DNA of 64,000 nt, taken from contig JBHGNT010000016.1 of NCBI GenBank assembly GCA_043228905.1, positions 3,596,001 through 3,660,000 on the forward strand, written 5' to 3'. Below, piece by piece: positions 15,966 to 63,687 of the stretch (within the stretch, counting starts at the first letter, position 1; every line of letters starts with the position of its first letter). A program made the position numbers and the translations under genes. The notes under the pieces are model-generated. The model had not been told where the DNA came from. It saw only the letters and a program-made list of their open reading frames with translations, and made no database searches. The DNA is from Azolla caroliniana (taxonomy: Eukaryota > Plantae > Polypodiophyta).

Positions 15966-16421
15966 TAGCACAATTGATCCTACTGTACCATAAATTAACC
16001 CTTAATATTGTATGTTCATATGTTCCCATGAAATATGTTTCACGCAACTTTTGGTCTATATCCAAACCATCACAATCCAATGTGTGTTTAAAACCCATCA
16101 AATACTTAAACATCCTACTCTAGCCTAAATTAAGATACAAAAGTGTGATTATGCAAATAACATCACATATAAACACAGGAATATAATCTAAAGACATCTT
16201 CAGAGGCTACAGAATAGCTGATGAGACTACTCTACCATAAACTAATATCTAACAATGTACAATGTGGCCAATCCAAATAGTTTACTCTACCATAATCTAA
16301 AAGTGATGATCCTACTCTTGACTAAACTAGCCTCTGATAATCTAATGATGAATATATTAATAACATGGGCACATGAAATGAAAACATTACTGAAAACCAA
16401 CTTTATGGGGGGGATACTGAC

Positions 16422-17261
16422 CTTTTTCAAAGTATGCGCAATAAGTTTACTTTGAAGTTTGCCCAGGTGATCTAAACAAGCTCTTGCACACCGAAAAGCA
16501 TGTTCTTGCATTGAGGCAGACATGTCCGCTGCCTTTATCCGGACCCGGAGCTCATTTGCCAAAGCATCTATATCAATTTGTGGTGTAACCTCTTCATAAA
16601 CACGATCAGGTGGTGAATCCAATGATGTCATTTCCATCTGTAGAAACTTAGAGTTCATTTCCATGGGTAGAATCTTAGGTTCTATTTCTAAAGGAAGAAA
16701 CTTAGGGTCCATTTCCGTGGGTAGAAACTTTGGATTCATTTCCATGGGTAGATAATGAGGATGCATTTCCACTACGTCCAATCCTTTCACGCTACTACTT
16801 TTCATCCTTGATGATGATAATGAACATGATCTCTCTAACATTCCACATATGATTTCCTTGTGATGCTCTGGTGAATCTTCTCTGATGTGATTCTTCTTCT
16901 TGTTGCTATTGCTGTTGTTATGGTTATTAAAGATTTCCTTATCTGATAAGAAACCTTTGAGAGACTGTTCATTTGGAAAGTAATACTCTTCTTGTTGTCG
17001 TTGTTGTTGTTTCAAACCATTCTTTTCATCCTCGTTTTCAAATCTAGTGTCTGAAGCTACCACTTTCTCTGGAATCATCATCTTCTCTGCTACAGAAGAA
17101 GATTGCTTCTCTTCTCTGATAAAATTAGGATTAGGGTTTTGATCTCTTTGTTGGACCCTTCCTTGCCTAACTTTAGCTTCATATTTCTGAATCCTTGCAA
17201 CAAATCTGCTTCTCATAGCTGCATTCATCATGCTAGCAGCTCTCGCATGTCCAGAATCCAT
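16422..17261 (-). CDS. Dynein light chain type 1 (LC8 family) protein with long N-terminal extension, exon 1
   Basis: First ATG at 17261 (the ORF track starts at an upstream TTG). Ends VRIKAADMSASMQEHAF...LIAHTLKK|GTCAGT, phase 0, joining exon 2 across a 4670-bp intron for a 333-aa product. Confidence 0.9.
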
Positions 17262-22477: not shown

Positions 22478-22910
22478 TATAAAAGAATACGTTGTGCGGA
22501 AGCGTGTGCGTAAAACGTAGAGTACAAAGTTCGGAAGAATGAGACAGTTCAGTAAACACAGAAAACACAAAGATGGAGAGGGAGAGATAGAGACAGAGAC
22601 AAAGACAGAGAGACACTATATATCAAAGTCAAAATAATTCTCTGTTCTATACATACTTCGTGCTCGGTGAGCAGCTTATCTAATAGCCTTGACAATCGGG
22701 CTAACACAAGTACTGACAGTACTTGACCGCTCATAAATGAGCCGACTACACAAACTCCCAAAATTATTCCTTTACGAGGAATAACGCTCTAACGGCCTCT
22801 TCGGTTTTCACACTGATGCGGCCCTGTTGTGCGTACTTTTTCACGCACCCAGTCTATGCACTGGGTTACGCTGCATACTTCGCATCGAATGTTGAGCTTG
22901 TCTCTCAACA
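22478..22910 (-). repeat. 3' LTR of outer Copia
   Basis: Matches 32925-33345; adjacent to the PPT (minus-strand TTGAGGGGGTG). Confidence 0.9.
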
Positions 22911-22980
22911 CACCCCCTCAAGCTCAACTTGAGGTTCCACTTGCTTCGCCGGATCTACGCTCCGGCTTCTCCTCCTGCCT

Positions 22981-23355
22981 TCACGCCTCGCTCGCGCTTC
23001 GACCCTTTCGGTCGGCTTGTCTGCTCGTTCGGCCTTTCTCAGCTCCCTTGTTGTCGCGGTGTTGGCGCCTCTTCTGCTGCTTTCTCTTCCGCTTGGCCCT
23101 CAGTTGATTCGGCGTATCCGAATCAAACATACCGATTGAATCGAACTCTTCCGATTCAATTTCACTCTCATACGAATTGGTTGTCTCCAATTCGTCCTCA
23201 ATCGTCAGGCCCCTGACAACATCCGACCACGTCTTAATCTTGGCCTTATCTCCCCCTGTTCCAGCTGTCCTCGGCTCCTTCTTATGCTTACAACCCTTGC
23301 TTCCGTCTTCAGCTTCTTCAGTCAGTTCGAAGTCGAATTCTCCATCCGACTCCAT
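22981..23355 (-). CDS. Extra charged ORF (acidic then basic) between outer Copia pol and its PPT
   Basis: 124-aa open frame in the element's sense orientation; function unknown, and it may be a pol C-terminal extension. Confidence 0.4.
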   Translation of the reverse strand: MESDGEFDFELTEEAEDGSKGCKHKKEPRTAGTGGDKAKIKTWSDVVRGLTIEDELETTNSYESEIESEEFDSIGMFDSDTPNQLRAKRKRKQQKRRQHRDNKGAEKGRTSRQADRKGRSASEA

Positions 23356-23459
23356 GATATCGAAGTTGAATTCTCCATCCGACTCTGCATCACGGTCACT
23401 TCCATCGTGATGCTTACCTCCGCTCCTTTCACGCTCTTGTCCCTATTCTTCCTTTCTCC

Positions 23460-25197
23460 CCCTCAAGTTTGGCGTGTCGAGGTGACGCAACCCAAGCGCA
23501 CCCGAGAAATGCCGTAACTTGTCAAGACCAAGAGGTTTTGTGAAGATGTCGGCAATTTGCCAATCAGTCGAAACATGCACCAATTCGACTTCACCTCAAA
23601 GGACCCGCTCGCGGACAAAATGGTAATGCACCTCAATGTGCTTGGTCCGGGCGTGGAAAACGGGGTTCTTCGTAAGGTGGATACTGCTAAGGTTGTCACA
23701 ATAGATTGTCATCAGATCAGACACCTCTACCTGCTAATTCCGTAATAGCCATTTCAGCAAAATGACTTCCACGTAGTGACAATCGCCCCTCGATATTCGG
23801 CCTCCGTGCTCGACATTGCTATTGTCGACTGCTTCTTATTGCTCCATGCGATCGCTGCACTCCCAAGAGAGAATGCGAAACCGGACGTGGATGGACGATC
23901 AGCGACATTGCCGGCCCAATCAGCATCGATGTAGCCGACCAACTGCGGGCCTATACCGGTCTGATATAGTAGCCCTCGGTCCTTAGTGCCGCTTTCGTAC
24001 CGTAGTACACGTTGCGCACACTGAAGGTGCTCACGCCATGAACTAACTAACCACACCGACTGAGTAACTGAGATCTGGTCTAGTGATGGTCACGTATATA
24101 AGGCTTCCAACTATCTGTTGGAACCTCATCGGGTCGCATACCTTTCCGGAATCAAGGCGAAGCTTGAAGGTTCTATCCAGAGGAGTCGAGACGGACTTAC
24201 AGTCTGCCATACCCAATTTGAAGAGCATACTCAGCACGTAATGTCGTTGGCTTATCAGTATACCTTCAGGGGTGCGGATCACTTCGATCCCGAGGAAGTA
24301 ATGAAGGTCCCCCAGGTCCTTGATGTCGAATGATGCTGCAAGTTGGAGCTTTACGCGGTCAATTTCACCTAGGTTGGTGCCGGTGATGACCAAGTCATCA
24401 ATATAAAGTAAAATACTAACCAGCCCGAATCGGCCTTACCAAATGAACAATGAAGAGTCCGATTTGGACGTTGCAAATCCCATCCGATGCAATCGCTACG
24501 TGATTTTCGCATTCCAAGCACGCGGGGCTTGCTTTAGTCCGTAGAGGAACTTCTTTAGCCGGCAGATCGCCGAAGTGTTCATTCCGGAGTGAAATCCGAG
24601 GGGTTGTACCATGTACACCTGTTCCTCAAGCTCGCCTTGCAGGAACGCATTCTTGACATCCATCTGATGTAAATGCCACCCCTTCGCCCTGCTACGGCTA
24701 GCAGAACACGCACGGTAGTCATCTTCGCAACAGGTGCGAAGGTCTTGTCGTAGTCCACGCCGTGCTTCTGCGTGTAGCTTTTCGCTACGAACCAGGCCTT
24801 GTAGCGGTTGATCGAGCTGTCGGTGTTGTACTTGACCTTGTACACCCACCTACATCCGATCGGCTTCACACCCTTCGGTGCGTCAACCAGGTCCTAGGTT
24901 TCATTCTTTGCCAAAGCGCGCATCTCTTCCTCCATTGTGGCACGCCAATTGGCGTCCTTCGTCGCTTCTGCGTAGCTCTCTGGCTCACGCACTTCCACTA
25001 CACGCGTCATGTACGCATAGGGATGCGCCATGTACTCGTTGTATCCGAACAACACAATAGGGTTCTTCTGGCGGGTAGATCGGCATAACTGCTCATTAGC
25101 CGATGTTGATGCTTTCTTGGCTGACACGGACTTCGCTCTCGAAGGCTCGTCGTCACTCTTCTCGGAGTCGTATTTGCGTCGATCCAACTCGCCCTTA
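23460..25197 (-). pseudogene. Outer Copia RT-RNase H, disrupted
   Basis: [51 protein letters not shown]; frameshifts and stops. Confidence 0.93.
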
Positions 25198-25199
25198 TT

Positions 25200-25777
25200 T
25201 GTTGGGATTTCGGTCCCTCCGGATGGGATGTCCGGAGATGAATGACGGCAAGCCCGGTTGCGGTTACGGAGCCGGATGATGAAGACCCCGGTTACGGAGC
25301 CGGATGACGAATGTACCCGGAGAGAGATCCGGATGCGGAGACATATTTGTGAATATGTTTGCCAAGAGCCCTTGAGGCTATATTTGTAAATAGCCCGAAA
25401 GTCATATGTGTATAAATATGACTTAGGGCAAACAGTTAAGTCTGTTGTTGCTCATTTTTCTGTTTTCTACTAAGAGGGAGCGAAGTGAGAGCAGCCGAGA
25501 GAGAGAGAGACGAAGAGGTCGTTGCCTCTGTGTATTACCACCGCCTGTGGTGAAGATAGTGAGCTCAAGGTTGTTGCCCTGTAGCTTCACCAGTGTACAT
25601 CTCTGTTTTAGTGATAGTTGGAGTTTGAGGACTCCCGTGGTTTTTTCCCATTTAGGGTTTTCCACGTAAAACATCCAGTGTACTCTTCTCTCTTTTGTTT
25701 TTCGTGCATTGTTGTATTTCCCGTTTTCTGTGAATCGATCCTGTTCCTCGGTTGTGGCCGAGCACGGAATTTCGACA
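25200..25777 (+). repeat. 5' LTR of inner Copia
   Basis: Identical by eye to 29893-30470; TATAAATA at ~25411. Confidence 0.97.
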
Positions 25778-25808
25778 AAGTGGTATCAGAGCGACGGTAA
25801 CACAGAAA

Positions 25809-28800
25809 ATGGAAGGCGGCAGCAGCGGGCAGCCGGGGATGATGGTGCTAAATGCGCAGAACTACGCCGACTGGAAGATAAAGATGGAGGATCTGCTCAT
25901 TGTTCGGGACCTGTATGAACCGATCGACAGGTCGGAAATACCCAAGGGGGTACTTGAGACGGAGTGGAGGCTTCTGAACCGGAAAGCCGTTGCAACCATT
26001 CGGCAATACGTCGACGTGAGCGTTCTACAACACGTGGCGAATGACACCAACGCATATGAGATGTGGAGGAAGCTGTCGGGCCTCTACGAGAGGAAGAATG
26101 CGTTGAACCGGACCTCCCTGATGAGAAAGATAGTGAACCTCAAGTACCGGGACGGCGAGAGTATGGTGGAACACGTAAGCACGTTCATGGGATTCGTGAA
26201 CCAGCTTGCGGCGATCAAGTTCCCGTTGGAGGATGCAATGCAAGCCATCATCCTGATGTGTACATTGCCGGACAGCTGGGAGAACTTGGTGGTGACTCTC
26301 AGCACCTCCTGCACCGAAGATAACTTGTCCCTACAAACGGTAAAGACAAGTATTTTGAACGAAGAAGCGCGTCGGAGAGATAAAGAGCCGGCCTCCGACT
26401 TGAAGGCGCTGCTTACCGAATCGGAACGGGGAAGACAATGGAACCGGAGTCCGCAAAGACGGGAGAAGTCGGGGACCCGGTCGCAGTCAAGAGGAAGACC
26501 CACATGCTTCCACTGTGGGAAGCCGGGGCACTTCCGGAAGAATTGTCGGCATTACCGAAAAGACAACGGAGCCGACGACACCGATTCGAAGAAGTCACCG
26601 GAGCGAAACGGCGCATACCGGGGAGCCACGGACTGGAGAGGTCCGGATCGGCGAGGGCAGGACCGGAAAGGAACGACGGCACTCGCGGCAAGTGAAGAAG
26701 AGATAATGCTCATTACCGAAGAGAGGGAGCTGAACCTTGCCGGTGAAGAGATGACCTGGGTGGTCGATTCCGGAGCGTCGTTCCACCTGACCCCGGAGAA
26801 GAAATACTTCTCCTCCTACACAGCCGGTGAGCACGGCTGTGTCCGGATGGGAAATGAAGGTACATGCCGGATTGCCGGCATAGGAGATGTGTGGCTGATG
26901 ACATCAACCGGATGCAAGATGCTGCTGAAGGATGTCCGACACGTTCCGGAGGTTCGATTGAACCTGATTTCGGCCGGGAGGCTAGACGATGAAGGCTACA
27001 CAGGTAGCATCCGGAACGGTGTCATGAAGTTCAGCAAAGGGAGCCTGATAGTGGCTCGGGCCCGGAAGGTCAACACACTGTACCTGATGAATTCCCGGCT
27101 ATGTCCTGAGGAGCTGAACGTGGCAGCTGACACTGCCGGTGAGCTATGGCACAAGAGACTGTGCCACATGAGCGAGAAGGGGATGAAGAGGCTTGCCGAA
27201 GACAACCTGATACCGGTAAAGCAATTACACTTGGGGAAGTGTACCGACTGTCTGGCCGGTAAGCAAAACCGGACCTCCTTCCACTCAAGGCCACCGACGA
27301 GACGTAGCGCACCATTGGAGTTGGTGCACACTGACGTGTGTCAAGTAGAAACGAAGTCACATGGCGGAGCCCAGTACTTCGTGACATTCATTGATGACCA
27401 CAGCCGGAAGCTGTGGACGGCACCGTTGAAGACAAAGGACCAAGTGTTGTGCGTCTTCAAAGAACTCCACGCGAGAGTGGAAAGAGAATCCGGCAAGAAG
27501 CTGAAAGCGATACGAGCGGATAACGGAGGGGAATACCGGGGGCAGTTCGTGGAGTACTGTCGCTCGAAGGGAATCCGGCTTGAGTTTACTGTGCCGAAGA
27601 CGCCGGAACTGAACGGGCTGGCCGAGAGGATGAACCGGACCATAATGGAGAGGGTCCGGAGTATGCTAGCGCATGCGAAATTACCCAAGGGGTTTTGGGC
27701 TGAGGCGATGTCGACGGCGACATACGTGATAAATAGATCACCCTCAGTACCTTTGGACGGAGACACGCCGCAGAGAGTGTGGACCGGTAGGGAAGTATCC
27801 TACCGGCATCTGAAGGTGTTCGGGTGCCTCGCATATGTGCATGTGGCTAAGGACCGGAGAGGAAAGCTAGATCCAAAGACCCGGCCATGCATATTCCTCG
27901 GTTACGGCGATGACGAGTTCGGCTACCGAGTATGGGACCCGGTCGACAAGAAGATATTCAGGAGTCGTGATATCATCTTCATGGAGGACAAGACACTCGC
28001 CGACTGGGAGTCGGAGAAGAAGATTAAGAGCTTCAAGTCGACCGGTGAGAATCAACTCTACGAAGAGCAGTCCCGACCGGCAAGGGACCGGTTAGCACTC
28101 GAGGATCCGGCCGAAGACGGTGAAGAAACAGAACCGGCCTCGGAAGATGAAACTGATACCGGAACCGGCCTCGATCCCGAAATGGATTCGGATGAAGAGG
28201 AAACGGAGGAGCCGGTTACCGAAGCTCCGGAACGGAGATATCCTCTAAGAGAGAGAAGGGCCCCCCGGAGATTTCCGGAACCAGAGCACGTGCTGCTAAC
28301 CGACGAAGGGGAGCCGGAGAGCTTTGAAGAAGCAAAGCATGACACCCAGAGCCGCAGGTGGTTGAGTGCCATGCAGGACGAGATGGATTCCCTGCATGAG
28401 AACCACACATATGAACTTGTGGAGTTGCCGAAAGGAAAGCGGGCACTTCGAAACAAGTGGGTGTTCAAGCTGAAACCGGGAGATGCCGAAAACCCCCCGA
28501 GATACAAAGCCAGGATCGTGGTGAAGGGGTTTCAGCAGAAGAAGGGCGTCGACTTCGACGAGATATTTGCCCCGGTAGTGAAGATGACCTCCATCCGGAC
28601 GGTGCTGAGCATAGCGGCAAGCATGGACCTCGAGGTAGAACAGATGGACGTGAAGACGGCATTCCTTCACGGTGACCTCGAAGAAGAGATCTACATGCAG
28701 CAACCGGAAGGATTCGAGAAGAAAGGGAAGGAGCACCTGGTATGCCGGTTGAAGAAGAGCCTTTACGGACTGAAGCAGGCTCCCTGGCAATGGTACCGGA

Positions 28801-29882
28801 AGTTCGACTCCTTCATGACCGACGAAGGGTACCACAAAACGCAGTCTGATCACTGCGTGTTTGTGAAGAAGTTCGAAGGAGGAGACTCTCTAATACTCCT
28901 CCTGTACGTGGACGACATGTTGATCGTCGGACGGGACCAGGTCAAGATACGGGTGCTGAAGAAGGCTCTTCACCGAACCTTCTCAATGAAGGACTTGGGT
29001 CCGGCGAGGCAAATATTAGGGATGCACATCATCCGGGACCGGAAGAAGAAGCAGTTGTGGCTGTCACAGGAGAAGTACGTGACAAAGGTGCTTCAACGGT
29101 TCAACATGTCGGAAGCAAGACCGGTCGGGTCAACCCTCCCGACAAACTGCAAGTTGTCCAACAAGCAAAGCCCCAAGACAAAGGCTGAGAAGGAGGACAT
29201 GATGAAAGTGCCATACGCCTCTGCCGTCGGAAGCTTGATGTACGCAATGGTGTGTACAAGACCGGACATTGGATATGCAGTTGGAGTGGTGAGCCGGTAC
29301 ATGACCAATCCCGGCAAAGAGCATTGGAACGCGGCCAAATGGATACTCCGATACCTGAAGGGCACGGCAAACGTGTGCCTCCGATTCGGCTCCGGTAAGC
29401 CCGAACTCGACGGCTTTACCGATTCGGATATGTCGGCTGATGCAAATACCAGCCGGTCCACATCAGGGTATGTGATGACGTATGCAGGGGGAGCTGTTTC
29501 GTGGCAGTCGAGGCTGCAGAAGACGGTTGCGCTGTCAACCACGGAGGCGGAGTACATGGCGGCTGTTGAAGCCGGCAAGGAAATAATATGGATGAAGGAC
29601 TTCATTAGAGAGCTCGGTATCCGGCAGGAGGAGTACCGACTCTACTGCGACAGTCAGAGTGCCATCCACCTTGCGAAGAACGCGGCTTATCACTCCCGGA
29701 CGAAGCACATCCAGCGAAGATATCACTGGATCCGGGAAAGGATAGAAGACAAGGAGTTCGTGCTGACGAAGGTCCACACGGACGAGAACGGGTCGGATAT
29801 GCTGACCAAGGTGCTCACACCCGACAAGCTGGAAGCATGCCGGAAGAGGATCGGACTGGAGAGACATCCCATGCCGAAGTGA
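25809..29882 (+). CDS. Copia Gag-Pol polyprotein (1357 aa from ATG 25809)
   Basis: CFHCGKPGHFRKNC zinc knuckle, WVVDSGAS protease, LWHKRLCH..CTDC plus DDE integrase, QMDVKTAFLHG/YVDD reverse transcriptase, DSD..TEAEY..DSQSA RNase H. Confidence 0.97.
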   Translation: MEGGSSGQPGMMVLNAQNYADWKIKMEDLLIVRDLYEPIDRSEIPKGVLETEWRLLNRKAVATIRQYVDVSVLQHVANDTNAYEMWRKLSGLYERKNALNRTSLMRKIVNLKYRDGESMVEHVSTFMGFVNQLAAIKFPLEDAMQAIILMCTLPDSWENLVVTLSTSCTEDNLSLQTVKTSILNEEARRRDKEPASDLKALLTESERGRQWNRSPQRREKSGTRSQSRGRPTCFHCGKPGHFRKNCRHYRKDNGADDTDSKKSPERNGAYRGATDWRGPDRRGQDRKGTTALAASEEEIMLITEERELNLAGEEMTWVVDSGASFHLTPEKKYFSSYTAGEHGCVRMGNEGTCRIAGIGDVWLMTSTGCKMLLKDVRHVPEVRLNLISAGRLDDEGYTGSIRNGVMKFSKGSLIVARARKVNTLYLMNSRLCPEELNVAADTAGELWHKRLCHMSEKGMKRLAEDNLIPVKQLHLGKCTDCLAGKQNRTSFHSRPPTRRSAPLELVHTDVCQVETKSHGGAQYFVTFIDDHSRKLWTAPLKTKDQVLCVFKELHARVERESGKKLKAIRADNGGEYRGQFVEYCRSKGIRLEFTVPKTPELNGLAERMNRTIMERVRSMLAHAKLPKGFWAEAMSTATYVINRSPSVPLDGDTPQRVWTGREVSYRHLKVFGCLAYVHVAKDRRGKLDPKTRPCIFLGYGDDEFGYRVWDPVDKKIFRSRDIIFMEDKTLADWESEKKIKSFKSTGENQLYEEQSRPARDRLALEDPAEDGEETEPASEDETDTGTGLDPEMDSDEEETEEPVTEAPERRYPLRERRAPRRFPEPEHVLLTDEGEPESFEEAKHDTQSRRWLSAMQDEMDSLHENHTYELVELPKGKRALRNKWVFKLKPGDAENPPRYKARIVVKGFQQKKGVDFDEIFAPVVKMTSIRTVLSIAASMDLEVEQMDVKTAFLHGDLEEEIYMQQPEGFEKKGKEHLVCRLKKSLYGLKQAPWQWYRKFDSFMTDEGYHKTQSDHCVFVKKFEGGDSLILLLYVDDMLIVGRDQVKIRVLKKALHRTFSMKDLGPARQILGMHIIRDRKKKQLWLSQEKYVTKVLQRFNMSEARPVGSTLPTNCKLSNKQSPKTKAEKEDMMKVPYASAVGSLMYAMVCTRPDIGYAVGVVSRYMTNPGKEHWNAAKWILRYLKGTANVCLRFGSGKPELDGFTDSDMSADANTSRSTSGYVMTYAGGAVSWQSRLQKTVALSTTEAEYMAAVEAGKEIIWMKDFIRELGIRQEEYRLYCDSQSAIHLAKNAAYHSRTKHIQRRYHWIRERIEDKEFVLTKVHTDENGSDMLTKVLTPDKLEACRKRIGLERHPMPK

Positions 29883-29892
29883 AGGGGGAGTT

Positions 29893-30470
29893 TGTTGGGA
29901 TTTCGGTCCCTCCGGATGGGATGTCCGGAGATGAATGACGGCAAGCCCGGTTGCGGTTACGGAGCCGGATGATGAAGACCCCGGTTACGGAGCCGGATGA
30001 CGAATGTACCCGGAGAGAGATCCGGATGCGGAGACATATTTGTGAATATGTTTGCCAAGAGCCCTTGAGGCTATATTTGTAAATAGCCCGAAAGTCATAT
30101 GTGTATAAATATGACTTAGGGCAAACAGTTAAGTCTGTTGTTGCTCATTTTTCTGTTTTCTACTAAGAGGGAGCGAAGTGAGAGCAGCCGAGAGAGAGAG
30201 AGACGAAGAGGTCGTTGCCTCTGTGTATTACCACCGCCTGTGGTGAAGATAGTGAGCTCAAGGTTGTTGCCCTGTAGCTTCACCAGTGTACATCTCTGTT
30301 TTAGTGATAGTTGGAGTTTGAGGACTCCCGTGGTTTTTTCCCATTTAGGGTTTTCCACGTAAAACATCCAGTGTACTCTTCTCTCTTTTGTTTTTCGTGC
30401 ATTGTTGTATTTCCCGTTTTCTGTGAATCGATCCTGTTCCTCGGTTGTGGCCGAGCACGGAATTTCGACA
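29893..30470 (+). repeat. 3' LTR of inner Copia
   Basis: Identical by eye to 25200-25777; the ORF-track peptides in the two LTRs are identical at offset 4693. Confidence 0.97.
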
Positions 30471-32817
30471 TCCGTGTCGTACTCTGACATCTTCTTCTTC
30501 CCTTTTTCCTTGCGCGTAAACCGTCTCCTCGGTTTCCTGCGCGGGGAATGCACGGTTGAGTCTCCACTACTCGTTGGCTCTTCTTCGGACTGGTCAAACC
30601 GACCCAGCCACTCATTCGGTCCACTTAGCCAAAATGAAATCGAACTCTCTCAGAGCTCCGATGTTCTCATCATGCAGAGGCATCTCAGCCTAGCTGACTT
30701 CGTCTTCAGAAATCAGAATGGAGTCATGAGGTTTTGGAGGAGAAGGCAAGTACCACGAAGCGGACTCGTCAAATACGACATTGTGGCTTACACGTACTTC
30801 CTTCGTTTGGGGGTTATAGCACTTATACCGCTTCTGCTCGTCTGGATAGCCGACTAAGATGCACTTTTCGGCTTTGGCGTCCAACTTCCTCCTGTTTTCC
30901 TTTGGCACATGCACATATGCAACGCTACCGAAAATCCTCAAGTGTGCCAAGTTCGGCTTCTTCCCGAAATACAGCTCATGTGGCAACACTCCTCCATTAG
31001 CAGAAGTTCGATTCTGCATGTAGACAGCCATCCTCGCGGCTTCAGCCCCAATAGAATTTCGGCATATGATTCTCTTGAAGCATTGCTGTGGCTACTTCTT
31101 CAATCATCTGATTCTTCCTTTTGGCTACGCAGTTCTGCTCCGGCGTATATATACACGAGAATTCACGCCGAATTCCCTCCTTCTGTAGATAACTCCTTCC
31201 CGCCATTGGACCGTAGCCATTTGATCTTACGCCCTATTTCCCTTTCCGCAAGGCTCTTCACCTTCAGGAAACATGCGAAGACTTCACTCTTCTTCGTGAT
31301 CGTGCATACCCATGTGTGCCGAGTGAAGTCGTTGATGAAGGTTACAAAGTAACGGCTTCTGCCAAGACTCACGTTCTGTGCCGGTCCCCACACATCCGAA
31401 TGGATCAAGTCCGGCGGACTTCGACTACGATTACGCTCATTGGGGAATGGAAGTCGGTGTTGTTTTCCCATCTGACAGGCTTCACAGACTTGGCCATTAC
31501 GGCCCCGAAATTTCGGCAAGCCGAAAACAATGTTCTTCGTCTGCATCTCACGAAGCCGTGGGAAATTTACATGGCCGAACCGCTTGTGCCACAGGTCGAT
31601 ATCCGATTCGACCTTTTGTCCTTTCGCGTACAACACAGTGCCCACATTATTGGTTTCGAGGATAAACATCCTACCTTCACGACACCCTTGCACGATCACT
31701 TTGCCTTCCTCTTCTATGAAGCAACCGAGGTGTGTGAATCAAACTTGCATACCTTGGTCGACGATCTGACCGACCGACACCGGGTTCTTGGTTATTGTCG
31801 GGATGTGCAACACGTTCATTAGCTTCCCTTTCTGCCTGACATGGCAAAGGGGAACTTTGCCGACATGTTCGATGGTATGAGGAGTGTCGTCTCCCGTTTC
31901 GACCACTCCTTTCTTATCCAACTTCTCCAAGTACAAGAACCATTCCTCGTGACTCGTCATATGATTTGATGCTCCGGAATCGACATACCACACCTCACTC
32001 GATTTCAAGGTGTTCACGACCATTGAGTTGGCCTTATGCTTCATTACGAAGGCAGGGCCCGCTCCATTCCCGGCTCTTTCTGAGCCTTCCGCGTAGTGAG
32101 ACTTTTGACGCCTCTTCGCGTCTCTTCCACTTGATCCGGCTTTGTCCGAATCAGCCTTCTTTTTCCATCACTCGCTCTCCCTGTGACCTCTCTTGCCACA
32201 GTACAACAATCCGACGTGGCCTTCTCTTGCCGTCTTCCGGCGCCGCCATGACTCCCCCTGCTTCCGGCATTTCAATTATGTCGTCCATTCTTCTCTTTTC
32301 GGCCGCCTCCATTGTGCGCCGATTCGCCTCATTCACCACGACAACGGGGCCTATCATCCTCCGTGTAGAGCATCTTGCCATCGGCATGTGCACTCGTTGA
32401 TGCACCCACGTGGTTTTCTTCTACGAGCAACATTGGCTGAAGCTCGAAAAACGAAGGCTTATTCTCCCTCGTGCAGACCACCGTTCAGAAAGCTCTGAAC
32501 TTAGATGCTAAACCGCCAAGACAAACCTGCACCATCTCGTCCTCCTCGACGTTCATGTTGACAGAGGCGAGTGAGTCGCAGATTTCTTTGATCTTGGTGG
32601 TGTAGTTAGCCACCGGCATATCTCGTTGTCGTACATTGCTCAACATTTGCCTGAGTTGAAGCTTCCTGGGTGTAGTGCTTGCGGCGAAGACCTTTTTTAG
32701 GTTTCCCCAAGCTTCTTTGGGCGTCTTGGAGTCTCGGATATGGCTCAGCATCTGGTCTCCGACACTGGACGCAAAGCAGTACATCACTCTACTTGCGCTT
32801 GTTATTCCTCTGTCCAT
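30471..32817 (-). pseudogene. Outer Copia gag-protease-integrase, disrupted
   Basis: KTPKEAWGNLKKVF (gag), WYVDSGASNHMT (protease), LWHKRFGHVN..CEACQMGKQHR and LIHSDVWGP (integrase), KLDAKAEKCILVGY; multiple frameshifts and stops. Confidence 0.92.
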
Positions 32818-32924
32818 ATCTGTTGTCTTTTCCTTTTCCGAAAAATGAAGAACAACTTCAACTCTGTTTGTCACAAGTTTTTCCTGTCGGCTATAGAGGA
32901 CTTCAACCACCCTTGCGCTCTGAT

Positions 32925-33345
32925 AGAATATGTTGTGCGGAAGCATGTGTGTAAAACGCAGAGTACAGAGTTCGGAAGAATGAGACAATTCAGTAAACAC
33001 AGAAAACACATAGATGGAGATGGAGAGACAGAGACAGAAACAGAGAGACACTATATATCAAATTCACAATAATTCTCTATTCTGTACATACTTCGTGCTC
33101 AGTGAGCACCTTATATACAAGCCCTGACAATCGGGCTGACACAAGTACTTACAGTACTTGACCGCTCATAAATGAGCCGACAACACAAACTCCCAAAATT
33201 ATTCCTTTACGAGGAATAACACTCTAACGGCCTTTTCGGTTTTCACACCGATGCAGCCTTGTTGTGCGTACTTTTTCACGCACCCAGTCTACGCACTAGG
33301 TTATGTTGCATACTTCTCACCGAATGTTGAGCTTGTCTCTCAACA
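32925..33345 (-). repeat. 5' LTR of outer Copia (inner end clipped by a short deletion)
   Basis: Matches 22484-22910; followed on the minus strand by the PBS remnant ATCAGAGC. Confidence 0.9.
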
Positions 33346-33775
33346 CCAACATATATTTCCCCACTTGATTGAGCCTTGCACCTGGCATAATTGCAACAAG
33401 TGGCCAACTCCCCAACATATTCAATGGGACGTTGGGCAGTCCCATAGAGCGTGTTGTATTAATTCTACTGCATGTGGGCACTCTACATAATTAGGAGAGC
33501 TAAGGTTCCCACATTGCCATGCTCCCACCGCTAGGGACTTATGTATTAATAGCCATTGGAATGTGGTAATTCGCCTCGCGTGTTGTTGTTTCCAAATTTT
33601 CTGCCAAAACTTGGTGATTATTGTGGGAGGAACTTGAATGTCAGACCTTCGCAGCAATCGGCTCTCGGGCGGTTTGAGCAAATAGAATGTGGCAACCCAA
33701 CCTAGTTGTGAATTGGAAGAAAGGAATGGGTTTGCTTCCTTGCCCCATGTAGGGATCACGCCATGAGATGTGGAA
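33346..33775 (-). mobile_element. L1-like LINE zf-RVT region, right half of the LINE split by Copia
   Basis: FWQKIWKQQHARRITTFQWLLIHKSL...HALWDC; the frame continues into 22477 once the Copia and one CCAAC are removed. Confidence 0.8.
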
Positions 33776-47089: not shown

Positions 47090-47321
47090 GATGTAAGAAG
47101 TTAAATGTGCACTTGGGAAGCAAAATGCATGTTTTTTATAAGGATGAGTGCCGGTGGTGTGGGGGTTGAAGCAGAATCTATTAAGAAGACTAGACTCATT
47201 TAGTTGTTTGTATGTATAGGTTTTGGCAGTAATAGGTGAGAAGTTGATGTGGACTTGATGACGCAAAATGTATGTTTTTGGATAAGGATGAGTGATGAGG
47301 TTATGGGGGACGAAGCATACT
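47090..47321. repeat. Degenerate tandem repeat (left part), interrupted by the Gypsy insertion
   Basis: GTTTT..ATAAGGATGAGTG.TG.TG.TGTGGGGG..GAAGCA units here continue at 53272-53730. Confidence 0.65.
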
Positions 47322-47755
47322 TGTTAACTCTTCGGGCCGGACAATGGCCTAACACAGGGTGTCTACATGAGACACTTCACCAAAGGGTGTTACGGCAACC
47401 GGATTAAACTTCAACGCTTAATCCAACTTAGTTAAGTTACTTATTAGGATCGTCTTTCATAACACGCGTAAGATATAACAATTAAGACAGAACGGCAATT
47501 AACACAGAGAGATAACAATGCTTAAGCTTTCATTAATTAACCACTAACTATTACATTGTATCCGAGCCTTTAAATAGGTTTCCGGTCTGTATTACAAAAC
47601 GGTGCCATCTGCACCTGTTCGGGATCGGTCCGGATCCGGAACGGCATACCGATTCCGGTCCGTCCGTCCACACTCATAGCTTAATTACAACCACATTCCT
47701 ACTACTTAATTAGCTCTCTGTTTCCCACTCTGGACTCCTTTGCCGGCCGGTAACA
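47322..47755 (-). repeat. Complete Gypsy LTR (434 bp)
   Basis: TG...CA ends with terminal inverted TGTTA/TAACA; its last 177 bp match 53095-53271 with 3 differences seen. Confidence 0.92.
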
Positions 47756-47757
47756 CA

Positions 47758-47774
47758 TGGCACGCCCATGGGAC
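47758..47774 (+). promoter_or_regulatory. tRNA-Arg(UCU)-type primer binding site-like sequence, antisense to the coding strand
   Basis: TGGCACGCCCATGGGAC starts 2 nt after the LTR end; it resembles the complement of the plant tRNA-Arg(UCU) 3' end (...GUCCCACYGGGCGUGCCA, recalled, not searched). Confidence 0.7.
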
Positions 47775-47809
47775 AGTACCTTGTACGTCAAATCTACAAC
47801 TAACCCTTG

Positions 47810-50806
47810 CTATTCTTCGTCCAAAATGTCCAGAATGCTTTGTTCGAGAGGCTCCAATGGTTCATCTGGAAGTGGTTGTTGTTGTTGTTGTTGTTGTTGC
47901 TCTGTTGCTGTCTGCTGCGGTGGGTCCGTTGGTGGTTGCTGCGGTTGCTCCTCCGTTTGTGGCTCTGACACCGGCGTCTCCGTCGTTGCTCCCTGCGTCG
48001 TAGTGGTCTCCGGTTGACTGGTTCCCGGCAGGCCCTCAGCCGGCGACGGTTCCTCATCACTAAGGTTAACCGTTGTCGCTTCCCGTGCTTTTTCTGCCCG
48101 TACCCGGGACCGCTCGTAGCTTTCAAACTGGATTTGAGTGTCCAACCTATCATCGTCCAGCTGAGCTACGAGCTGCCTGACCTGCACCAGCTGTTCATCT
48201 GCCAGGACTTGGAAGTCGTCGGCCAGCTCGTCCCGTATGGCGGTGAAGTCCTCGGAAATCAACGTATAACAGTCATCTCCTTCCTTCCGCCGGTTTGCCA
48301 CATCCGCCCGTAGCAACTAGAGTTCCGCCGCGTTTTGTGCCCACTTTGTCCACCATTTTACGGAGCTTTCATCAATCAAGTGTTTCGTCTGATTCAGCCA
48401 TGCCAGGAGGATGGACTGAATCCGGCTCGTTCCCAATTGCGATTTGGTTTCCGCCGCTTGCCGTTCCTCCTTCAGTTGTTTGATGATTTTGACGTTGTCC
48501 TCCGCCTGCGCCTTGTAATGCGTCAATTGCCTTTAATATGTACTTTGTAATTTCTGCAATACTGTTGACGCTCTCTCTTTGTCTTCTTGCTGCTGCCTCT
48601 AGAGCTCCATCTGGACCTTCTCTGCCTCTTCCAAGCGTCTTGTATTTTCCGCCCATTCGTCGGCGATCGCCATCGCGGCCCGATCAACTGCCTGCTGGAG
48701 CTCGGCCATCCGTTCTTTATGCTCTGTTTCCAGCCGTTTGTAGTCCTGGTGCAGGTGCTCAAAATCATCCGTCTTTTGCTTGAGCCGTGCATTGATCTAA
48801 CGACGGGCCCGGTCCTCGCGGTCCTTCTGCTGGCGGAGCTCTTCCTTTAGCCGTTCAATCTTTGTTTCTGCCGTTTTCCGCAGCTTGTCCTTTTCCTGCA
48901 GCACTTTGTCTTTCTCCTCCTTTAGCCGGTCGTACGCTTGATGGCCTTTCCGGAGGCTCTCCTCTGCCCGGCGGAGGTTCTCAGCAGTCTTCTTTAATTC
49001 GGCTTCGGCCGCCGTCTTCAATTCTCGTTCACGGCTCCTTAGCGCTTCTTGTGCGGCAAGTTCCTCTCTCAATTCCGCAAGCTCCCGAGCTTGCGCCGCA
49101 TCTCTCGCCGGAACGGTTTCCGTTGCCGGGGTCTTATTGCTATGTACAGGTCGTTCCGTTTCTTTATTCTGTACACTTACCGGAGTCACCGGTGATTGGA
49201 TCCGTATTTTGGCCATCTCTATCGTGACCTGATCCAAATCTTTTTCAAGGCACCGGATTCTGGACCGGGCCGTCTCTAGTTGTTCGGTTGTGACGAGCAA
49301 CCGTTCGCTTTGCGCTCTTTCTTCCGCCTCTATATACCCCACTGCTCCGGCTATCTGTTCGCCTATCCACCGGAGCCATAGGCTACCGGTGCCTTGTTGT
49401 GCTTGCACGGAGGTTTGATAGATGGACTCACTTGTAGAGGGGTGGTCCCGCCTGGTTGCGCCGAGTTGCAGTTCCTTTTCTGCCCATGGACCATCTTGCT
49501 GTCCTGGTTCCCTTTGCGCTTCTTCTTGGCTGACCGAGGGAGGCTGTAGTGACCTTTCTGGCTCTGGCGGGATGGGACTTGCCGGTGTTGCCGGTGGTGC
49601 CGGGGCTTCTGTTTCTGGTGCCATCTGCACCGGTTCCGGTTCCTTCCTTGGCGTGGGAGTCTCAGTCTGGGGAGCCGGTGTTCCCTCCGTCTTAGGGTCC
49701 GAACGTTTCCCGGCTGTCTCAACGGTCCTTGCCGACGACCGTCGCTGGAAGTGCTCCGTAGGCTCCTCCTCTATTTCCTCCTCCTGAGCTCCGGCATTGA
49801 GTTTTGCCGCCAAGGGGTCCACTTCTCGATTCACCGGTCGGCGGAGTGTGACCTTTACGGGCCGTGCCGGTGGTTCCTCCAGCGCCTCTGTTGGGCGCTT
49901 CCGGCTTCCGCTTCCTGTTGCCGCCTGTTCTGCATCCACCGCCTTTCCCTTACTGGCCTTAGAGGCCAACATCTGTTGCCGTTTGGAAGCCGTCCTTGGG
50001 GTGCCGTCCGGCACTCTTCCTCGCTTCTTGGGCTGGACGGTCTGAACGGGTGGCACCAACAAGGTGAGCCACTGCGTTACGGCATGCCATATCCTTCGTC
50101 CGTCTCGGCCTTCTTTGCCGTCTTTGCCTCTGACGATCTCGATCGCCGCACACAACCCATCTGCAATCAATACCGGCCAATCCACCTTGATCCCTTCATA
50201 GGTGGCGATGATCATCCCTGCCCGGTTCTGCGGCATGACAGGGGGTCTAGGGTACACGTGGCCGTATTCATGGAGCACACGAGCAATTTCGCGGAACAAC
50301 ATATCCCCGCCGCCCTGTGTCCGGTAGCCCTTGCTGGCTAGAGAGTACTCACCAAAATACCTGATGAGTTGCTCCGGGGTTGGATTGTCGATCGTGAGTA
50401 TGCCTCCCTCCGGAAGGCCTGTTAACGCTCGAATCGCCTCTGCCGTTATGACCTCTGTATCGATTTCCTTGATCACTTTGTCGGCTTCTTTGTGTTGCGG
50501 TACTTCCATCATCATCAAGAAGCCCTCAAGCCCGTGTTGCTTCAGCCATGTCTTGGCGGCTTCCGACAGCGTTTGCGGGTCCATCTCTGTGTCGGGGTCG
50601 GATTGCGGTGACGAGGATGGATGGTGATGAGAGCGGGGTTGAGAAAGAGAGAGTTCAGAAGGCGGGGGTTCTCTGTGCGCAGGTTCTCGTCTGATGATCT
50701 TGCAGCGTTTCGATGCTTCTGTGCTCCTGGGTTCGCGAAAGTAGAGGGTCTCTATGCGCAATGGTTTTTGTTTGTGCATTTTGGCGCCTTTTTCGAGTTT
50801 GTGCAT
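47810..50806 (-). pseudogene. Gypsy accessory ORF downstream of integrase (globular N-domain, P/E-rich linker, long coiled coil, Q/E-rich tail), disrupted near its 3' end
   Basis: 669-aa open frame at 48797-50806, continued by pieces to 47810. ITAEAIRALTGLP and IKVDWPVLIADGL resemble the 'putative plant transposon protein' domain of Athila-type extra ORFs. Confidence 0.75.
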
Positions 50807-50953
50807 GTCGCGTACTTAAAATAGCATTATGTCCTGTGGTGGCGCTTTAAATGCCCACTACGTACCTTTTCGCTCCACGCTCTTTCCTCCATTCATTCCT
50901 CGTTTTTGCATGATTGTTTTTTTTTTTCAGTTATTATTATTATTAGTGTGACG

Positions 50954-52818
50954 TCACATGTCCGTTGGTCCTCCCGGACCCTTACCGGCATCATTCTCTC
51001 TGGTTCCCGACTTGCCGTCTCTGCCGTCTTGGTGGTTGCCATCGGTCCTTTGCTCAAACGGGTTCTTAGGCATCGGTCCTCTATATGCCTTTAACCGGAA
51101 TCCGTTGACCCATTTGCCCAGCACTTCGCCGGCAAGTGTCCCCAACTGGTAGGACCCATTATACTCCCGTGTTAGCCAATATGGTCCGGTCCATCTAAAC
51201 CTTAGTTTACCCGGCATCTTGCCCATCCGGGTTTGGAATACTAACACTGGTTTGCCGATTGCGAACATTTTTTCGTTACCTTTCCTGTGCCGGTCGACGA
51301 ATGCTTTCCATCGCCGTTGCTCCAATTCTAAATGTAGGATGCTGGCCAACCGTTATTCCTCTAGCTCACACAGCGCTGTCAACCTTATTGTCTCCGACTC
51401 CTTCTCGTTCAGTCGTTCTCGTAGCTGGATCCGTAAGCTAGGTACTTGAAATTCTACCGGCATGACCGCCTCGAGTCCGAACGCCAACCGGAACGGTGTT
51501 GTTCGGATGCTCGTTTTGTATGTCGTTCGGTATGCCCAAAGCGCTCTATGTAGCTTTGTGTCCCAATCCGTCCGGTTCTCGTTGACGATCTTCCGAAGGA
51601 TGTTCTGGAGCGTCTTGTTTGTTGATTCCGCTAATCCGTTCGCCTGTGGATAGTAAGGTGTGCTTCGTTTGTGGACCACGGCATAGAAGGTTGTTAGGCT
51701 TTCCACTACTTGTCCGAGAAAGTGACCCCCTTGGTCACTTATCAATTCAATGGGGCATCCGTAACGGCACCAGATGTACTCATATAGAAACTTTGCCGTT
51801 GACGCAGCAGTGTTATCCCGTAAAGCTTTGGCCTCCACCCATTTCGTGCAGTAATCCGTAGCAACGATAACGTACCGATTACCCGTTCTCATTGCCGGTG
51901 GCTTGAACGGTCCTACAAAGTCCAGCCCCCACTTTTGGAATGGCTCGAGTGGTAGTACCGGCTGGTGTGGCATACGAGCCTGCTCCATTGGCTGGCCCAT
52001 TCTCTGGCATAGGTCACATTCTTTTGCGTACCGTACCGCATCTCTTAATGTCGTTGGCCACCATAGGCCACTTTGCCATATTTTTCTGGTTGTCGCATCT
52101 CCGGCATAGTGACCTCCGGCAACTCCGCAATGGGCTTCCCTCAGTATCAGTTCCTTTTCATCGTTGCGCACCGCCCGTCTCCATATGCCGTCCGCGCCCT
52201 TGTGGTACAGTGTGTCTTGCAGTAAGCAGAAATGTCAGCTTTGTACCGCCAGGCGTTTCCGTTCGTCCCGGTTCAGTTCTTCCGGAGGCAGTCCTGTGCT
52301 CAGAAACTGGTGCATATTTGTGAGCCACTTGTCTTCCTGGGCCACTGTCTCATCTGTTGCCGTCTCCGTAGTGACTCGAAACAGCTCCGCATCCGGAAAC
52401 TCATCCGGTACTCCGTCACCCGTCTCTCCGGACTCCAATCGGCTTAAGTAATCCGCTACGGCATGCTGTATACCGGGTCGGTGGAATATTTCAAACTCGA
52501 ACTCCTGTAACAATAAGGTCCACCGGGCCAATTTGCCAGTGAGTGACGCCTTGGACACCAGGTAAAGGAGTGCCGAATGATCTACATGGAAGGAAAACTT
52601 CCTTCCCAATAAATAGTGCCGAAACTTTGTCACACTGTAGATCATTCCTAGAGCTTCCCGTTCCGTAGTAGAGTAGTTCCGTTCTGCTTGGGATAGCTTC
52701 CGGCTGGCATACTACATTGGCCGGTACCACTTTGGTTCCGTAAGCTGCATCAGTACGCTTCCGATTGCGATGTCGGAGGCGTCCACAAAACGTGAAATTC
52801 TTTACTCCAATCTGGAGG
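50954..52818 (-). pseudogene. Gypsy pol fragment: RNase H and integrase
   Basis: VDASDIAIGSVL, YYASRKLSQAERNYSTTEREALG, HHCC domain (EAHCG..GHY..CDLCQR), WGLDFVGP, YYPQANGLAE, RWTGPY; a few stops and frameshifts; no chromodomain. Confidence 0.93.
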
Positions 52819-52827
52819 TCCACGGGT

Positions 52828-53097
52828 AGGACAACAGGATGGTCCACGGGCAGAAAAGGAACTGCAACTCGGCGCAACCAGGCGGGACCACCCCTCTACA
52901 AGTGAGCCCATCTATCAAACCTTCGTGCAAGCACAACAAGGCACTGGTAGCCTGTGGCTCCGGTGGATAGGCGAACAGATAGCCGGAGCAGTGAGGTATA
53001 TAGAGGCGGAAGAAAGAGCACAAAGCGAACGGTTGCTCGTCACAACCGAACAACTAGAGACGGCCCGGTCCAGAATCCGGTGCCTTGAAAAAGATTT
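52828..53097 (+). repeat. 270-bp inverted copy of 49236-49505 filling the Gypsy deletion
   Basis: The same peptide QAQQGTGSLWLRWIGEQIAGAV appears on opposite strands; about 9 substitutions by eye. Confidence 0.93.
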
Positions 53098-53271
53098 CCG
53101 GTCTGTATTACAAAACAGTGCCATCTGCACCTGTTCGGGATCAGTCCGGATCCGGAACGGCATACCGATTCCGGTCCGTCCGTCCACACTCATAGCTTAA
53201 TTACAACCACATTCCTACTACTTAATTAGCTCTCCGTTTCCCACTCTGGACTCCTTTGCCGGCCGGTAACA
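53095..53271 (-). repeat. Truncated Gypsy LTR (outer 177 bp only)
   Basis: Equals 47579-47755 and is followed by TSD ATACT. Confidence 0.92.
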
Positions 53272-53730
53272 ATACTCTCATGAGGGGATGAGGAAAAAAG
53301 ACTCATGTATTGTTGTATGCATAGGATTTTGGTGGTATTCGGCGACATGGATGATGTGAACTTAATGACATAGGATTTATGTTTTAGATAAGGATGAGTG
53401 ATGATGGTGTGGAGGTCGAAGCACATTCTCATGAGGAGATGAGGAATTTAGACACATTTTCTTGTTTATGTGCAGGAATTTGGCGTATTCAACAATGATG
53501 GTGTGGAGGTTGAAGCACATTCTCATGAGATGAGGAATTTAGACACATTTTTTTGTTTATGTGCAAGAATTTGGTGTATTTGGCAAGATGGTTGATGAGG
53601 ACTTAACGAAGCAGTTTTTATGTTTTTTGATAAGGACGAGTGATGATGGTGTGGGGGCGAAGAATATGCTCATGAGGAGAGGAGGAAACTTGACTTAATT
53701 TGTTGTTCTATGTACAGGATTCTAGTGGTA
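53272..53730. repeat. Degenerate tandem repeat (right part)
   Basis: Repeated GATAAGGATGAGTGATGATGGTGTGG and CATGAGGAGATGAGGAA units. Confidence 0.7.
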
Positions 53731-61687: not shown

Positions 61688-63249
61688 CTGATTAAAACAA
61701 TGTAAGATTTGACTAATTATATACTAGCACACTCCCTCTCTCCCTCCCTCCTATGATGGGGTTCCTGTGCATCAAATGAGGTAATACAAATATAGACATT
61801 ATGAGGACCAATCAAAGTACTACCTATGTGAAGTGAGAATTGCATAGATAGGTTTGTATGGTGAAGTCCAAGGTTGACATTGTGAATCATGATTGACCTC
61901 AAATTGAGAAATGACATGGAAATTGTGGCATTATCCTCTACGGCATTAAAAAACCATGATTGGAGAGCTATACTCCAAAGTAACACAATAGGAGCATTTA
62001 AAAGGTTGGTTAACCATGAAAAAGTCCAAGTAGAACAAAAGAGCATGTTTTCTGTAGTTTCGTGTAAAAACCTTACATTCAGAACTATAACTTCATTTCA
62101 TTAGTTTCAACCTAGTTTCAACCATAGTAAAAACAGGATTTCCATATACCTGCAGTTGAAGCATTGTAACAAGATCCATTGCAATTATCAAATTAAGCTG
62201 AAATTCATACACATGCACTGAAATATTAAGTTTAAAAGAGTCACGGAAAAATACATGCGAAGTATGTATGGTGAAACAGTGGCATATGAAATACAAAATA
62301 CGCCTCGAACGGTGCTGCCTTTATAAAATAGATGGAAAACTCGCCATCCAAGCATAAATCAAGAACTTACATCTTGTTGTGTACCGCAAAAAGTTGCAGT
62401 TGTCAGCAAAATCAGAATTTGGCAGAAAGCCGCACCTGTTGCTACAATGCTCCTGCTCTTGGCAGGAAACCAGAAATTACCCACCCAACTTTGCTCCATA
62501 GAGTGATCCAATATGGAATGTACATTTGGAGGAGGAAGTGTCTCCGATGTACTGTGATGTGGCTTGATCTTATAAAGATGTGCAATCTGAACCATGGTCC
62601 ATGACAAAGAGGAATGGCTCTCTGATTCCACTTTAACCAGGATGTTTGCTTATACATTACTAGTATCCCTAATAATATCCATGCAGAAGAAATTTGTCTA
62701 TTTTCTCTGCCTAGGTGGATTTCTGCGCATCTAGGTCTCCCTCAAGTGGCCTTTTCAAGGTCTTCTTATCTCTAGAAAGAATGGCAATAACAATCTTTGA
62801 GTAGTGTACTCTGTCACTCTCTGGAGAATCCAGGCATTCAGCATATAAAGGACATCATTTACTAATCATAGCCTAAAAGGCATTAAAGCCATGCAGTTTG
62901 AAGGAATCTTCCACATGTGGACAATACTCTAAAATCTGTTCATCTTTATAGCATTATTGCCTTGTAAAATGCAAAACCAACATATCTCCATATTTCAATA
63001 GTAAAGTTGCCATTTATATCTTTGGTATTGCATTAACAATAAATGATGCATAGGTTTTCACATTAACACTTCTAAGTGCCCTTAGTGAAGTAACTTGGCA
63101 TTAGTTGAGGTCAAATGCGTGCTTTATTTATTTATTGTGGGTTTCTTCACATTTAATCCATGCAATTTCACATATAGCATAAAGGAAATTAAACAATGCC
63201 AAAAATGTATATGAAAAAAGCAAACATGAGAGCTAGGGTCATACAATAC

Positions 63250-63486
63250 CTGATTTGTGCTTATCAAGTACGCATGAAACACAGTGAGACCGCCGACAAA
63301 CCAAGACGCTAGAAAACAATAAGCCATTAGAGCGACAGATGCAGGTGATCTTTGGAATGCTTTCCAAACTGTATTTGGAGAATTTCCATCCATGAGCTTT
63401 TTTATTCGTAACGCACACATTGCGATAACAAAGAAGCATAACAATGTTGACGTGAATATGAACGTTATAAAGAATGGATAATTCCT
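63250..63486 (-). CDS. DHHC protein S-acyltransferase, penultimate exon (TM3-TM4)
   Basis: TTGCAG|RNYPFF...WFVGGLTVFHAYLISTNQ|GTATTG, phase 0. Confidence 0.95.
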
Positions 63487-63687
63487 CTGCAATACAATAA
63501 AAACAACCAAATGCTATAAATAAAAACAACACGTCAAAAAATGAAAAACAACAAGGGAGAAAAACCTAAGTACCCATCTTGTTGGATGCTCATCAGAATT
63601 CCTCTCTGTAGTACATAATTCATAATACTACATGTGGGTACCCTGGTATTTTTCAAAACTTGGGTATTTTGGTGTTGATATACATAC

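Follow-up and report, generated by a model that had tools for sequence, protein, structure and literature searches.

How is the plus strand of a long terminal repeat (LTR) retrotransposon primed when a copy of a tRNA end stands where the purine-rich primer is expected? In LTR elements and retroviruses, the use of a tRNA for the minus strand and of a polypurine tract (PPT) for the plus strand is treated as general and, to our knowledge, the exceptions (half tRNAs, self-priming) touch the minus-strand primer only. The question is raised by a Ty3/gypsy element at 47322-53271 in a 64,000-nt stretch of DNA from the fern Azolla caroliniana (GenBank assembly GCA_043228905.1, contig JBHGNT010000016.1, positions 3,596,001 to 3,660,000 of the forward strand), called here, at its full length, the window. 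The copy is a deleted one, from which gag, protease, reverse transcriptase (RT) and the sense 5′ primer site are gone, and it represents one insertion, because the same 5 bp (ATACT) are found at both flanks. In the element and its family, a sense tRNA primer site follows the 5′ LTR (deleted in the window copy, present in the family), a tRNA copy is placed 2 nt ahead of the 3′ LTR, a PPT is missing, the LTRs have precise TG...CA ends and the target site is duplicated over 5 bp. Our reading of this arrangement, to which we give a probability of about 0.6, is that a second host tRNA would anneal to the minus-strand DNA and prime the plus strand.

A first, sequence-only reading of the window had placed all coding regions on its minus strand, heading to the LTR at 47322-47755, and had described a junction that is not purine-rich and carries, 2 nt from the LTR, a motif like a primer binding site (PBS). 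Both observations stand. RNase H, integrase and an accessory open reading frame (ORF) are all so oriented, and TGGCACGCCCATGGGAC begins at 47758 on the plus strand, 2 nt past the LTR end. In gene sense, 8 of the 15 nt ahead of the window LTR are purines, at most 3 of them in a row, as against 10-12 purines and runs of 5-9 in six PPT-bearing relatives. No PPT was found in any of the six motif cases (the window and five other loci), the longest purine run being 3 in all of them. That reading overlooked a second stretch of the tRNA match, 10 bases long, which lies past a 13-nt hairpin (47775-47797 for the two together). The complete 40-nt motif corresponds to the 3′-terminal 28 nt of tRNA-Arg(UCU) with one base left out, and is interrupted after position 58 by the hairpin; the missing base is one C at the junction of the T stem and the acceptor (standard tRNA numbering). 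In all six cases, read in gene sense, the 10-nt half comes first, followed by the 13-nt hairpin, the 17-nt part, the 2-nt spacer and the LTR. The motif ends exactly in CCA (CTA in locus L013), and the spacer is constant at 2 nt.

Such a motif is not expected by chance. In 482,895 bases (the window and 80 related loci, both strands), the 17-nt core was found six times with at most 2 mismatches, compared with 0.07 expected, and each occurrence is followed by 2 nt and TGT. The joined 10- and 17-nt parts have one match each in a viral and a prokaryote collection, and both are tRNA-Arg(TCT) genes according to ARAGORN. The earlier proposal that the motif copies a tRNA 3′ end thus holds for tRNA-Arg(TCT) genes that are prokaryotic or phage, not host genes; plant tRNA-Arg(UCU) presumably shares that 3′ half. 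In the window, the 10-nt half departs from the tRNA at three places, two of them private to this copy. A search of 47700-47900 against Rfam gave a chance-level match only (E 2.5). The 13-nt insert forms a hairpin in which 92% of cells are paired, and 2 of its pairs show changes in both partners (7 cells). It is known that RT on a tRNA template halts at A58. Since the break in the motif follows A58, the split arrangement suggests capture from a tRNA during minus-strand synthesis.

The occurrence of the motif in other copies was followed in the best 80 of 513 loci, taken from contigs of sequencing runs and metagenomes by a scan with a 21-protein alignment. It lies 2 nt ahead of an LTR starting with TGT in five of them (L003, L005, L013, L019 and L070). 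A PPT is present at the equivalent place in six others, with the LTR start set by alignment in L040, L049, L074 and L076 and by eye in L029 and L032, and the junction was uncallable in the remaining 69. L003 and L070 run uninterrupted from integrase through accessory ORF, motif and LTR into unrelated flank. L005, L013 and L019 have a single LTR, preceded by the motif and followed by the sense primer site; because there is one LTR only, they are collapsed or tandem assemblies. L013 belongs to the family of the window element, as its LTR is 72% alike and its 5′ site is the same as that seen at the loose ends of read contigs described below. The six LTRs form four families, with a between-family identity of 44-51% against 46% for shuffled sequences. 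An ordinary PPT in other copies had been considered from the start, and instead the relatives within the clade carry the motif in all six rows with a visible junction.

Contigs from sequencing runs give a similar picture. Those from four runs span the LTR-motif junction without gaps (47200-47870), with 47752-47774 among the deepest bins, and one contig of run X2 reaches more than 31 nt past the junction in both directions. An ordinary primer site, reading TGGCGACCAC in gene sense, is found beyond the other LTR end, in the loose ends of 22 contigs of X2 and 23 of X5 (agreement 0.48 and 0.44, respectively, among the 24 of 498 loose-end rows listed). Primer sites at both ends in opposite orientation, the arrangement that the sequence-only reading had associated with dual tRNA priming, therefore exist at the level of the family. 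Loose ends also show different LTRs joined to the same motif, and 17, 18 and 12 contigs have an exact tRNA 5′ half. In a second alignment (47715-47840; one doubtful RNA run besides organisms A, C and D), the 17-nt core is near-invariant in three DNA runs, with just three variable places, an invariance that is partly built in because only similar contigs align. One of these places is 47768, where the window copy is the outlier and the tRNA-matching base makes up 97-99% of the depth; the core also shows two CpG-type transitions at 1-3%, and the spacer past 47796 is freely variable. The doubtful run, X21, taken as RNA by guess only, has two contigs over the motif that are silent on strand and expression. 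The motif is conserved in several families and in runs that bear at least four different organism labels; look-alike windows in other genomes were searched for and none was found.

The ordinary 5′ site of these elements has features of its own. It is of the TGGCGACCAC or TGGCACGCC type in the motif clade as opposed to the TGGCGCCGTTGCC type in outgroup loci. It matches a tRNA over 10-14 nt, a shorter match than that of the motif, and lies behind a spacer of 4-7 nt; in PPT-bearing relatives this spacer is 3-7 nt. For its 10-nt end, 80 matches in the viral collection were called as Arg (32), Asp (7), Trp (5) or Ser (1), with 35 uncalled, and a similar human primer site is labelled Arg and also Trp (PMC4724089). 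The 5′ sense site of L005 agrees with the same tRNA end as the motif over 13 nt, which indirectly supports a plant tRNA with this 3′ half. Both sites of this locus (L005 5016-5025 and 5517-5526) fit one tRNA and can pair mutually, unlike those of the window's family, which match two different tRNA ends.

The distribution of the motif was placed on an integrase tree of 68 rows (44 usable of 45 loci chosen from the 80, 23 of 120 proteins, and the window), built by a quick method. All six motif rows fall within one 19-row clade (SH-aLRT 100), whose remaining 13 rows, proteins or contigs, end short of the junction. The six loci with an observed PPT all lie outside this clade; the PPT label used on the tree took in L042, L051, L078 and L080 through a shared LTR and left out L029. 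This pattern suggests, and only suggests because the deep branches are weak and the root arbitrary, a one-time loss of the purine tract in the motif clade. The window is found among fern and liverwort rows, apart from those of angiosperms and conifers, a placement from integrase only and with the same weak deep branches. No integrase relatives were found in the viral collection. A full-length relative, P0002, has gag, RT, RNase H and integrase domains; its integrase is 91% identical to that of the window, its residues 1287-1865 align to 52789-51053 (87%), and inspection by eye shows that its CCHC knuckle and all four acidic residues of RNase H are retained. Taken together, these data favor, about as strongly as for the priming step itself, a whole autonomous clade that does without a PPT, with host tRNAs priming both strands and the second acting through a split, hairpin-interrupted site probably captured from a tRNA. 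As a separate observation, TGG(C/T)GACCA-type 5′ sites, as in the window's family, also occur in a related lineage with a PPT (L078 at 4480 and 5998, L076 and L074), which suggests that such a 5′ primer is older than the loss of the purine tract.

In the proposed mechanism, a tRNA at the ordinary 5′ site would prime the minus strand and RNase H would clear the RNA. Then, tRNA-Arg(UCU) would open its acceptor and T arms and pair 17 + 10 bases with the minus DNA, leaving the 13-nt hairpin looped out. RT would extend from the CCA end across the 2-nt spacer into the unique 3′ region (U3), after which RNase H would strip the tRNA and integrase would trim 2 nt. Integrase trims 2 nt from the ends of the DNA, which is the distance from CCA to U3 here. 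The tRNA can bind the motif only on minus DNA or on antisense RNA, because in sense RNA the motif is the tRNA's own sequence. Cofolding pairs nearly all 27 bases and loops out the hairpin. With RNA parameters as a stand-in, the predicted gain for the whole tRNA is 17-27 kcal/mol with the minus strand versus 2-10 kcal/mol with the sense strand. In addition, three of the four family-level changes (G53A, U55C and G68A) would still allow a G-T or U-G pair with the minus strand, a weak indication.

Nevertheless, several observations weigh against priming by a second tRNA. The loci that show both sites (L005, L013 and L019) are not single full-length copies, and the invariance of the core is in part a product of the alignment, as noted above. 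ARAGORN found no tRNA genes in the window or in the 26 of 80 loci scanned, the host's own tRNA-Arg gene was not seen, and the fourth change, U55A in L003 and L019, breaks one pair. A tRNA paired with DNA is itself a substrate of RNase H, and RTs extend RNA primers other than the PPT poorly on DNA. The hairpin covariation, in which the number of cells was as high in 0 of 500 shuffles and the number of pairs in 178 of 500, comes from six related rows and a structure drawn from those same rows. Finally, sense RNA is predicted to form the same covarying hairpin, with the last 10 nt free in four of six folds (L013, L003, L019 and L070). Because hairpin and free tail are thus also predicted for the element RNA, a primer in cis fits these features equally well. 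In that case, the hairpin with its CCA tail would resist RNase H, be cut after CCA and behave as a non-purine, tRNA-like PPT. The stem does bear compensatory changes, and ordinary PPT logic (PMC5371799) would suffice. By contrast, the structure is not a minihelix, since no conserved 5′ acceptor strand lies upstream, its T-loop bases are variable, and the window and L005 fold otherwise. A cis primer also leaves unexplained why families whose LTRs are unrelated all keep 27 bases matched to a single tRNA species, and we regard it as possible but improbable.

The remaining explanations assign the motif a different role. It might pair with the element's own 5′ site, in a circularizing or self-priming RNA, or act as a small-RNA decoy, with the plus strand starting otherwise. 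The 5′ site can indeed pair with the motif in L005 (-26 kcal/mol) and L019 (-20 kcal/mol), but in the window's family the 5′ site differs and pairs poorly (-9 kcal/mol in L013) while the motif is unchanged. Since this pairing is strong in the former and weak in the latter, it is not a general function; furthermore, the fixed distance of 2 nt to the LTR marks a priming position, and a precise primer would still be needed for the left DNA end. Thus, this role is unlikely. The sequence-only reading had also offered a packaged RNA antisense to gag-pol, in which the motif would be a Ty1-like split site for the minus strand and the roles of the two ends would be swapped. What survives of this proposal is the textbook 2-nt spacing with a longer tRNA match than at the 5′ site, an RNA:RNA duplex that would escape RNase H, and the antisense position of the only TATAWAW in L003 and L019. 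However, L013, L070 and L005 have their TATAWAW in gene sense (the window LTR has none), and the first half of the LTR is G-rich and the second T-rich in gene sense in all six cases, as in the LTR of a copia element of the window. LTR polarity, then, mostly follows the genes. PPT-bearing relatives share the 3-7 nt spacer at the 5′ site, and the gag side is also without a PPT, so a tRNA-type plus-strand primer would still be required; the antisense proposal is therefore weakened, and we consider it very unlikely. The least credible explanation is that the internal region is inverted in the window copy alone and the motif is an ordinary primer site. Although this copy is rearranged, with a deletion and an inverted filler, such an inversion is rejected by the same gene order in the uncollapsed and unbroken L003 and L070, by the bridging X2 contig and by the separate sense site at the other LTR end.

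A high-copy, successful clade without a PPT shows that RT and RNase H can set the left DNA end in another way. Both leading readings, a tRNA in trans or a tRNA-like piece of RNA in cis, would be new. A literature search, with most subscription journals outside its coverage, found no LTR element described as lacking a PPT or as having two tRNA sites among the titles and abstract openings that it listed. The system opens a short and direct test of how an RNA can act as a primer on DNA and escape destruction. There is also a practical aspect, as such elements may be given the wrong orientation, or lost altogether, by annotation software that relies on PBS and PPT to orient them.

Features of the element in the window are given with their coordinates below.

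Features of the Ty3/gypsy element and its insertion site (window positions; strand relative to the window)
Feature	Position	Strand	Basis or remark
Left target-site duplication, ATACT	47317..47321		matches the right copy
Complete 3′ LTR, 434 bp, TG...CA	47322..47755	-	72% alike to the L013 LTR
2-nt spacer between tRNA-like CCA and LTR	47756..47757	-	TG, GG or AG among the six cases
17-nt copy of tRNA-Arg(UCU) 59-76 minus one C	47758..47774	-	reads as a PBS on the plus strand
13-nt hairpin insert	47775..47787	-	equal length in 6/6; compensatory changes at two stem pairs
10-nt copy of tRNA positions 49-58 (5′ half of T arm)	47788..47797	-	3 differences from the tRNA, two private to this copy
Accessory ORF, ~924 codons, pol sense	47810..50584	-	4 internal stops here; no Pfam match
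Integrase: zinc-binding, core and C-terminal part	50954..52234	-	in-frame stop 51353-51355; Pfam Integrase_H2C2, rve
RNase H remnant, integrase directly after	52235..52827	-	Pfam RT_RNaseH
Inverted 270-bp copy of 49236-49505, fills the deletion	52828..53097	+	97% identity
5′ LTR, first 175 bp only	53097..53271	-	3 mismatches/175 against the 3′ LTR
Right target-site duplication, ATACT	53272..53276		matches the left copy

The other internal junction, which had been described as deleted in this copy, is indeed lost: the LTR remnant of 175 bp is joined to the inverted 270-bp piece of the accessory ORF. The two meet through a partial similarity of ~22 nt, next to a TATA-like site, and the filler looks like the product of a template switch. 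The insertion target is a degenerate host repeat (47129-47321 and 53272-53710) with units ~90-240 bp apart. The accessory ORF matches no Pfam family. Its N-terminal ~200 residues (49862-50584, minus strand) are kept in 10 of the 80 loci at 28-51% identity, and it ends in an ILDIL-plus-acidic peptide (47810-47870, minus strand, in the window) in all six cases (the window, L003, L005, L013, L019 and L070). This peptide sits 0-92 nt ahead of the tRNA motif and is preceded by unrelated residues; a short interaction motif and a constraint at the RNA level are both possible explanations.

Elsewhere in the window, a nested pair of copia elements occupies 22492-33346, where an inner, apparently intact copia of 1382 codons (~25198-30470) lies in a decayed copia of opposite orientation. 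The inner element has LTRs that are 100% alike over 300 nt, a tRNA-Met-type site and an ordinary purine tract; no matching duplication was seen at its ends. Host genes encode a lipid-transfer protein (1934-2380), a dynein light chain whose coding region contains a 27-bp tandem repeat (16287-17306) and an exon of a DHHC acyltransferase (63124-63513), for which the best named matches are fern proteins, from Ceratopteris (78%) and Adiantum (73%; 5 matches among 20 candidates). These matches point to a fern and not to a moss as the host.

In terms of known groups, the element is a non-chromovirus Ty3/gypsy, only Athila-like, in which the PPT expected of the group is missing. It has direct TG...CA LTRs with a duplication, and RNase H followed by integrase in the window. 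Membership of the chromoviruses (Tcn1, self-priming) is rejected, because the C-terminal part of the integrase has no Pfam match and a tRNA-type 5′ site is present. Phygy and Selgy are short, have a 4-bp duplication and a tRNA-Trp or Ala site, and lack an extra ORF (PMC6317226); they are rejected by the 5-bp duplication and long extra ORF found here. The Tat/Ogre parallel first drawn does not fit either. These lineages resemble the fern element in the Arg site, with tRNA-Arg primer sites in 89% of Ogre, 64% of TatIII and 30% of Retand, but theirs is an ordinary 5′ site and they are defined by an archaeal RNase H (PMC6317226); a standard layout is stated for Retand (PMC11963269). In the fern element the archaeal-type RNase H is absent, as RNase H joins integrase directly and PF13456 is not listed for P0001-P0004, so Tat/Ogre/Retand membership is rejected. 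Athila and the OTA group of REXdb are closer, sharing the 5-bp duplication, the lack of an archaeal RNase H and of other extra polyprotein domains, an extra ORF after pol and an integrase that is ~40-45% identical. They differ in primer type, since Athila primers are tRNA-Asp, Asn or Ala (PMC6317226), and in the integrase-only tree, with its weak deep branches, the named Athila-type proteins fall in another branch, whose relatives show purine tracts.

Canonical Ty3/gypsy elements, and Ty3 and Ty1 of yeast, share with the fern element the LTRs, a tRNA site past the 5′ LTR and the order of RT, RNase H and integrase. The minus strand of Ty1 and Ty3 is primed at split sites, to which the tRNA binds through its acceptor stem and T arm, while their plus strand starts from a purine tract resistant to RNase H (PMC5371799), at the place where the fern element has a tRNA-sense copy. 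A tRNA-related sequence near the 3′ end that helps reverse transcription is also reported for HIV-1, where a tRNA-Lys3-like sequence at U3-R is described as aiding minus-strand transfer (Piekna-Przybylska 2010, through the citing PMC6468702); however, this sequence is described as complementary to the tRNA (PMC6468702) and the PPT is kept (PMC5371799). Helenus TRIMs are likewise LTR elements with tRNA-derived sequence, but there the tRNA-like part forms a Pol III promoter within the LTR, and both PBS and PPT are kept (PMC10886601).

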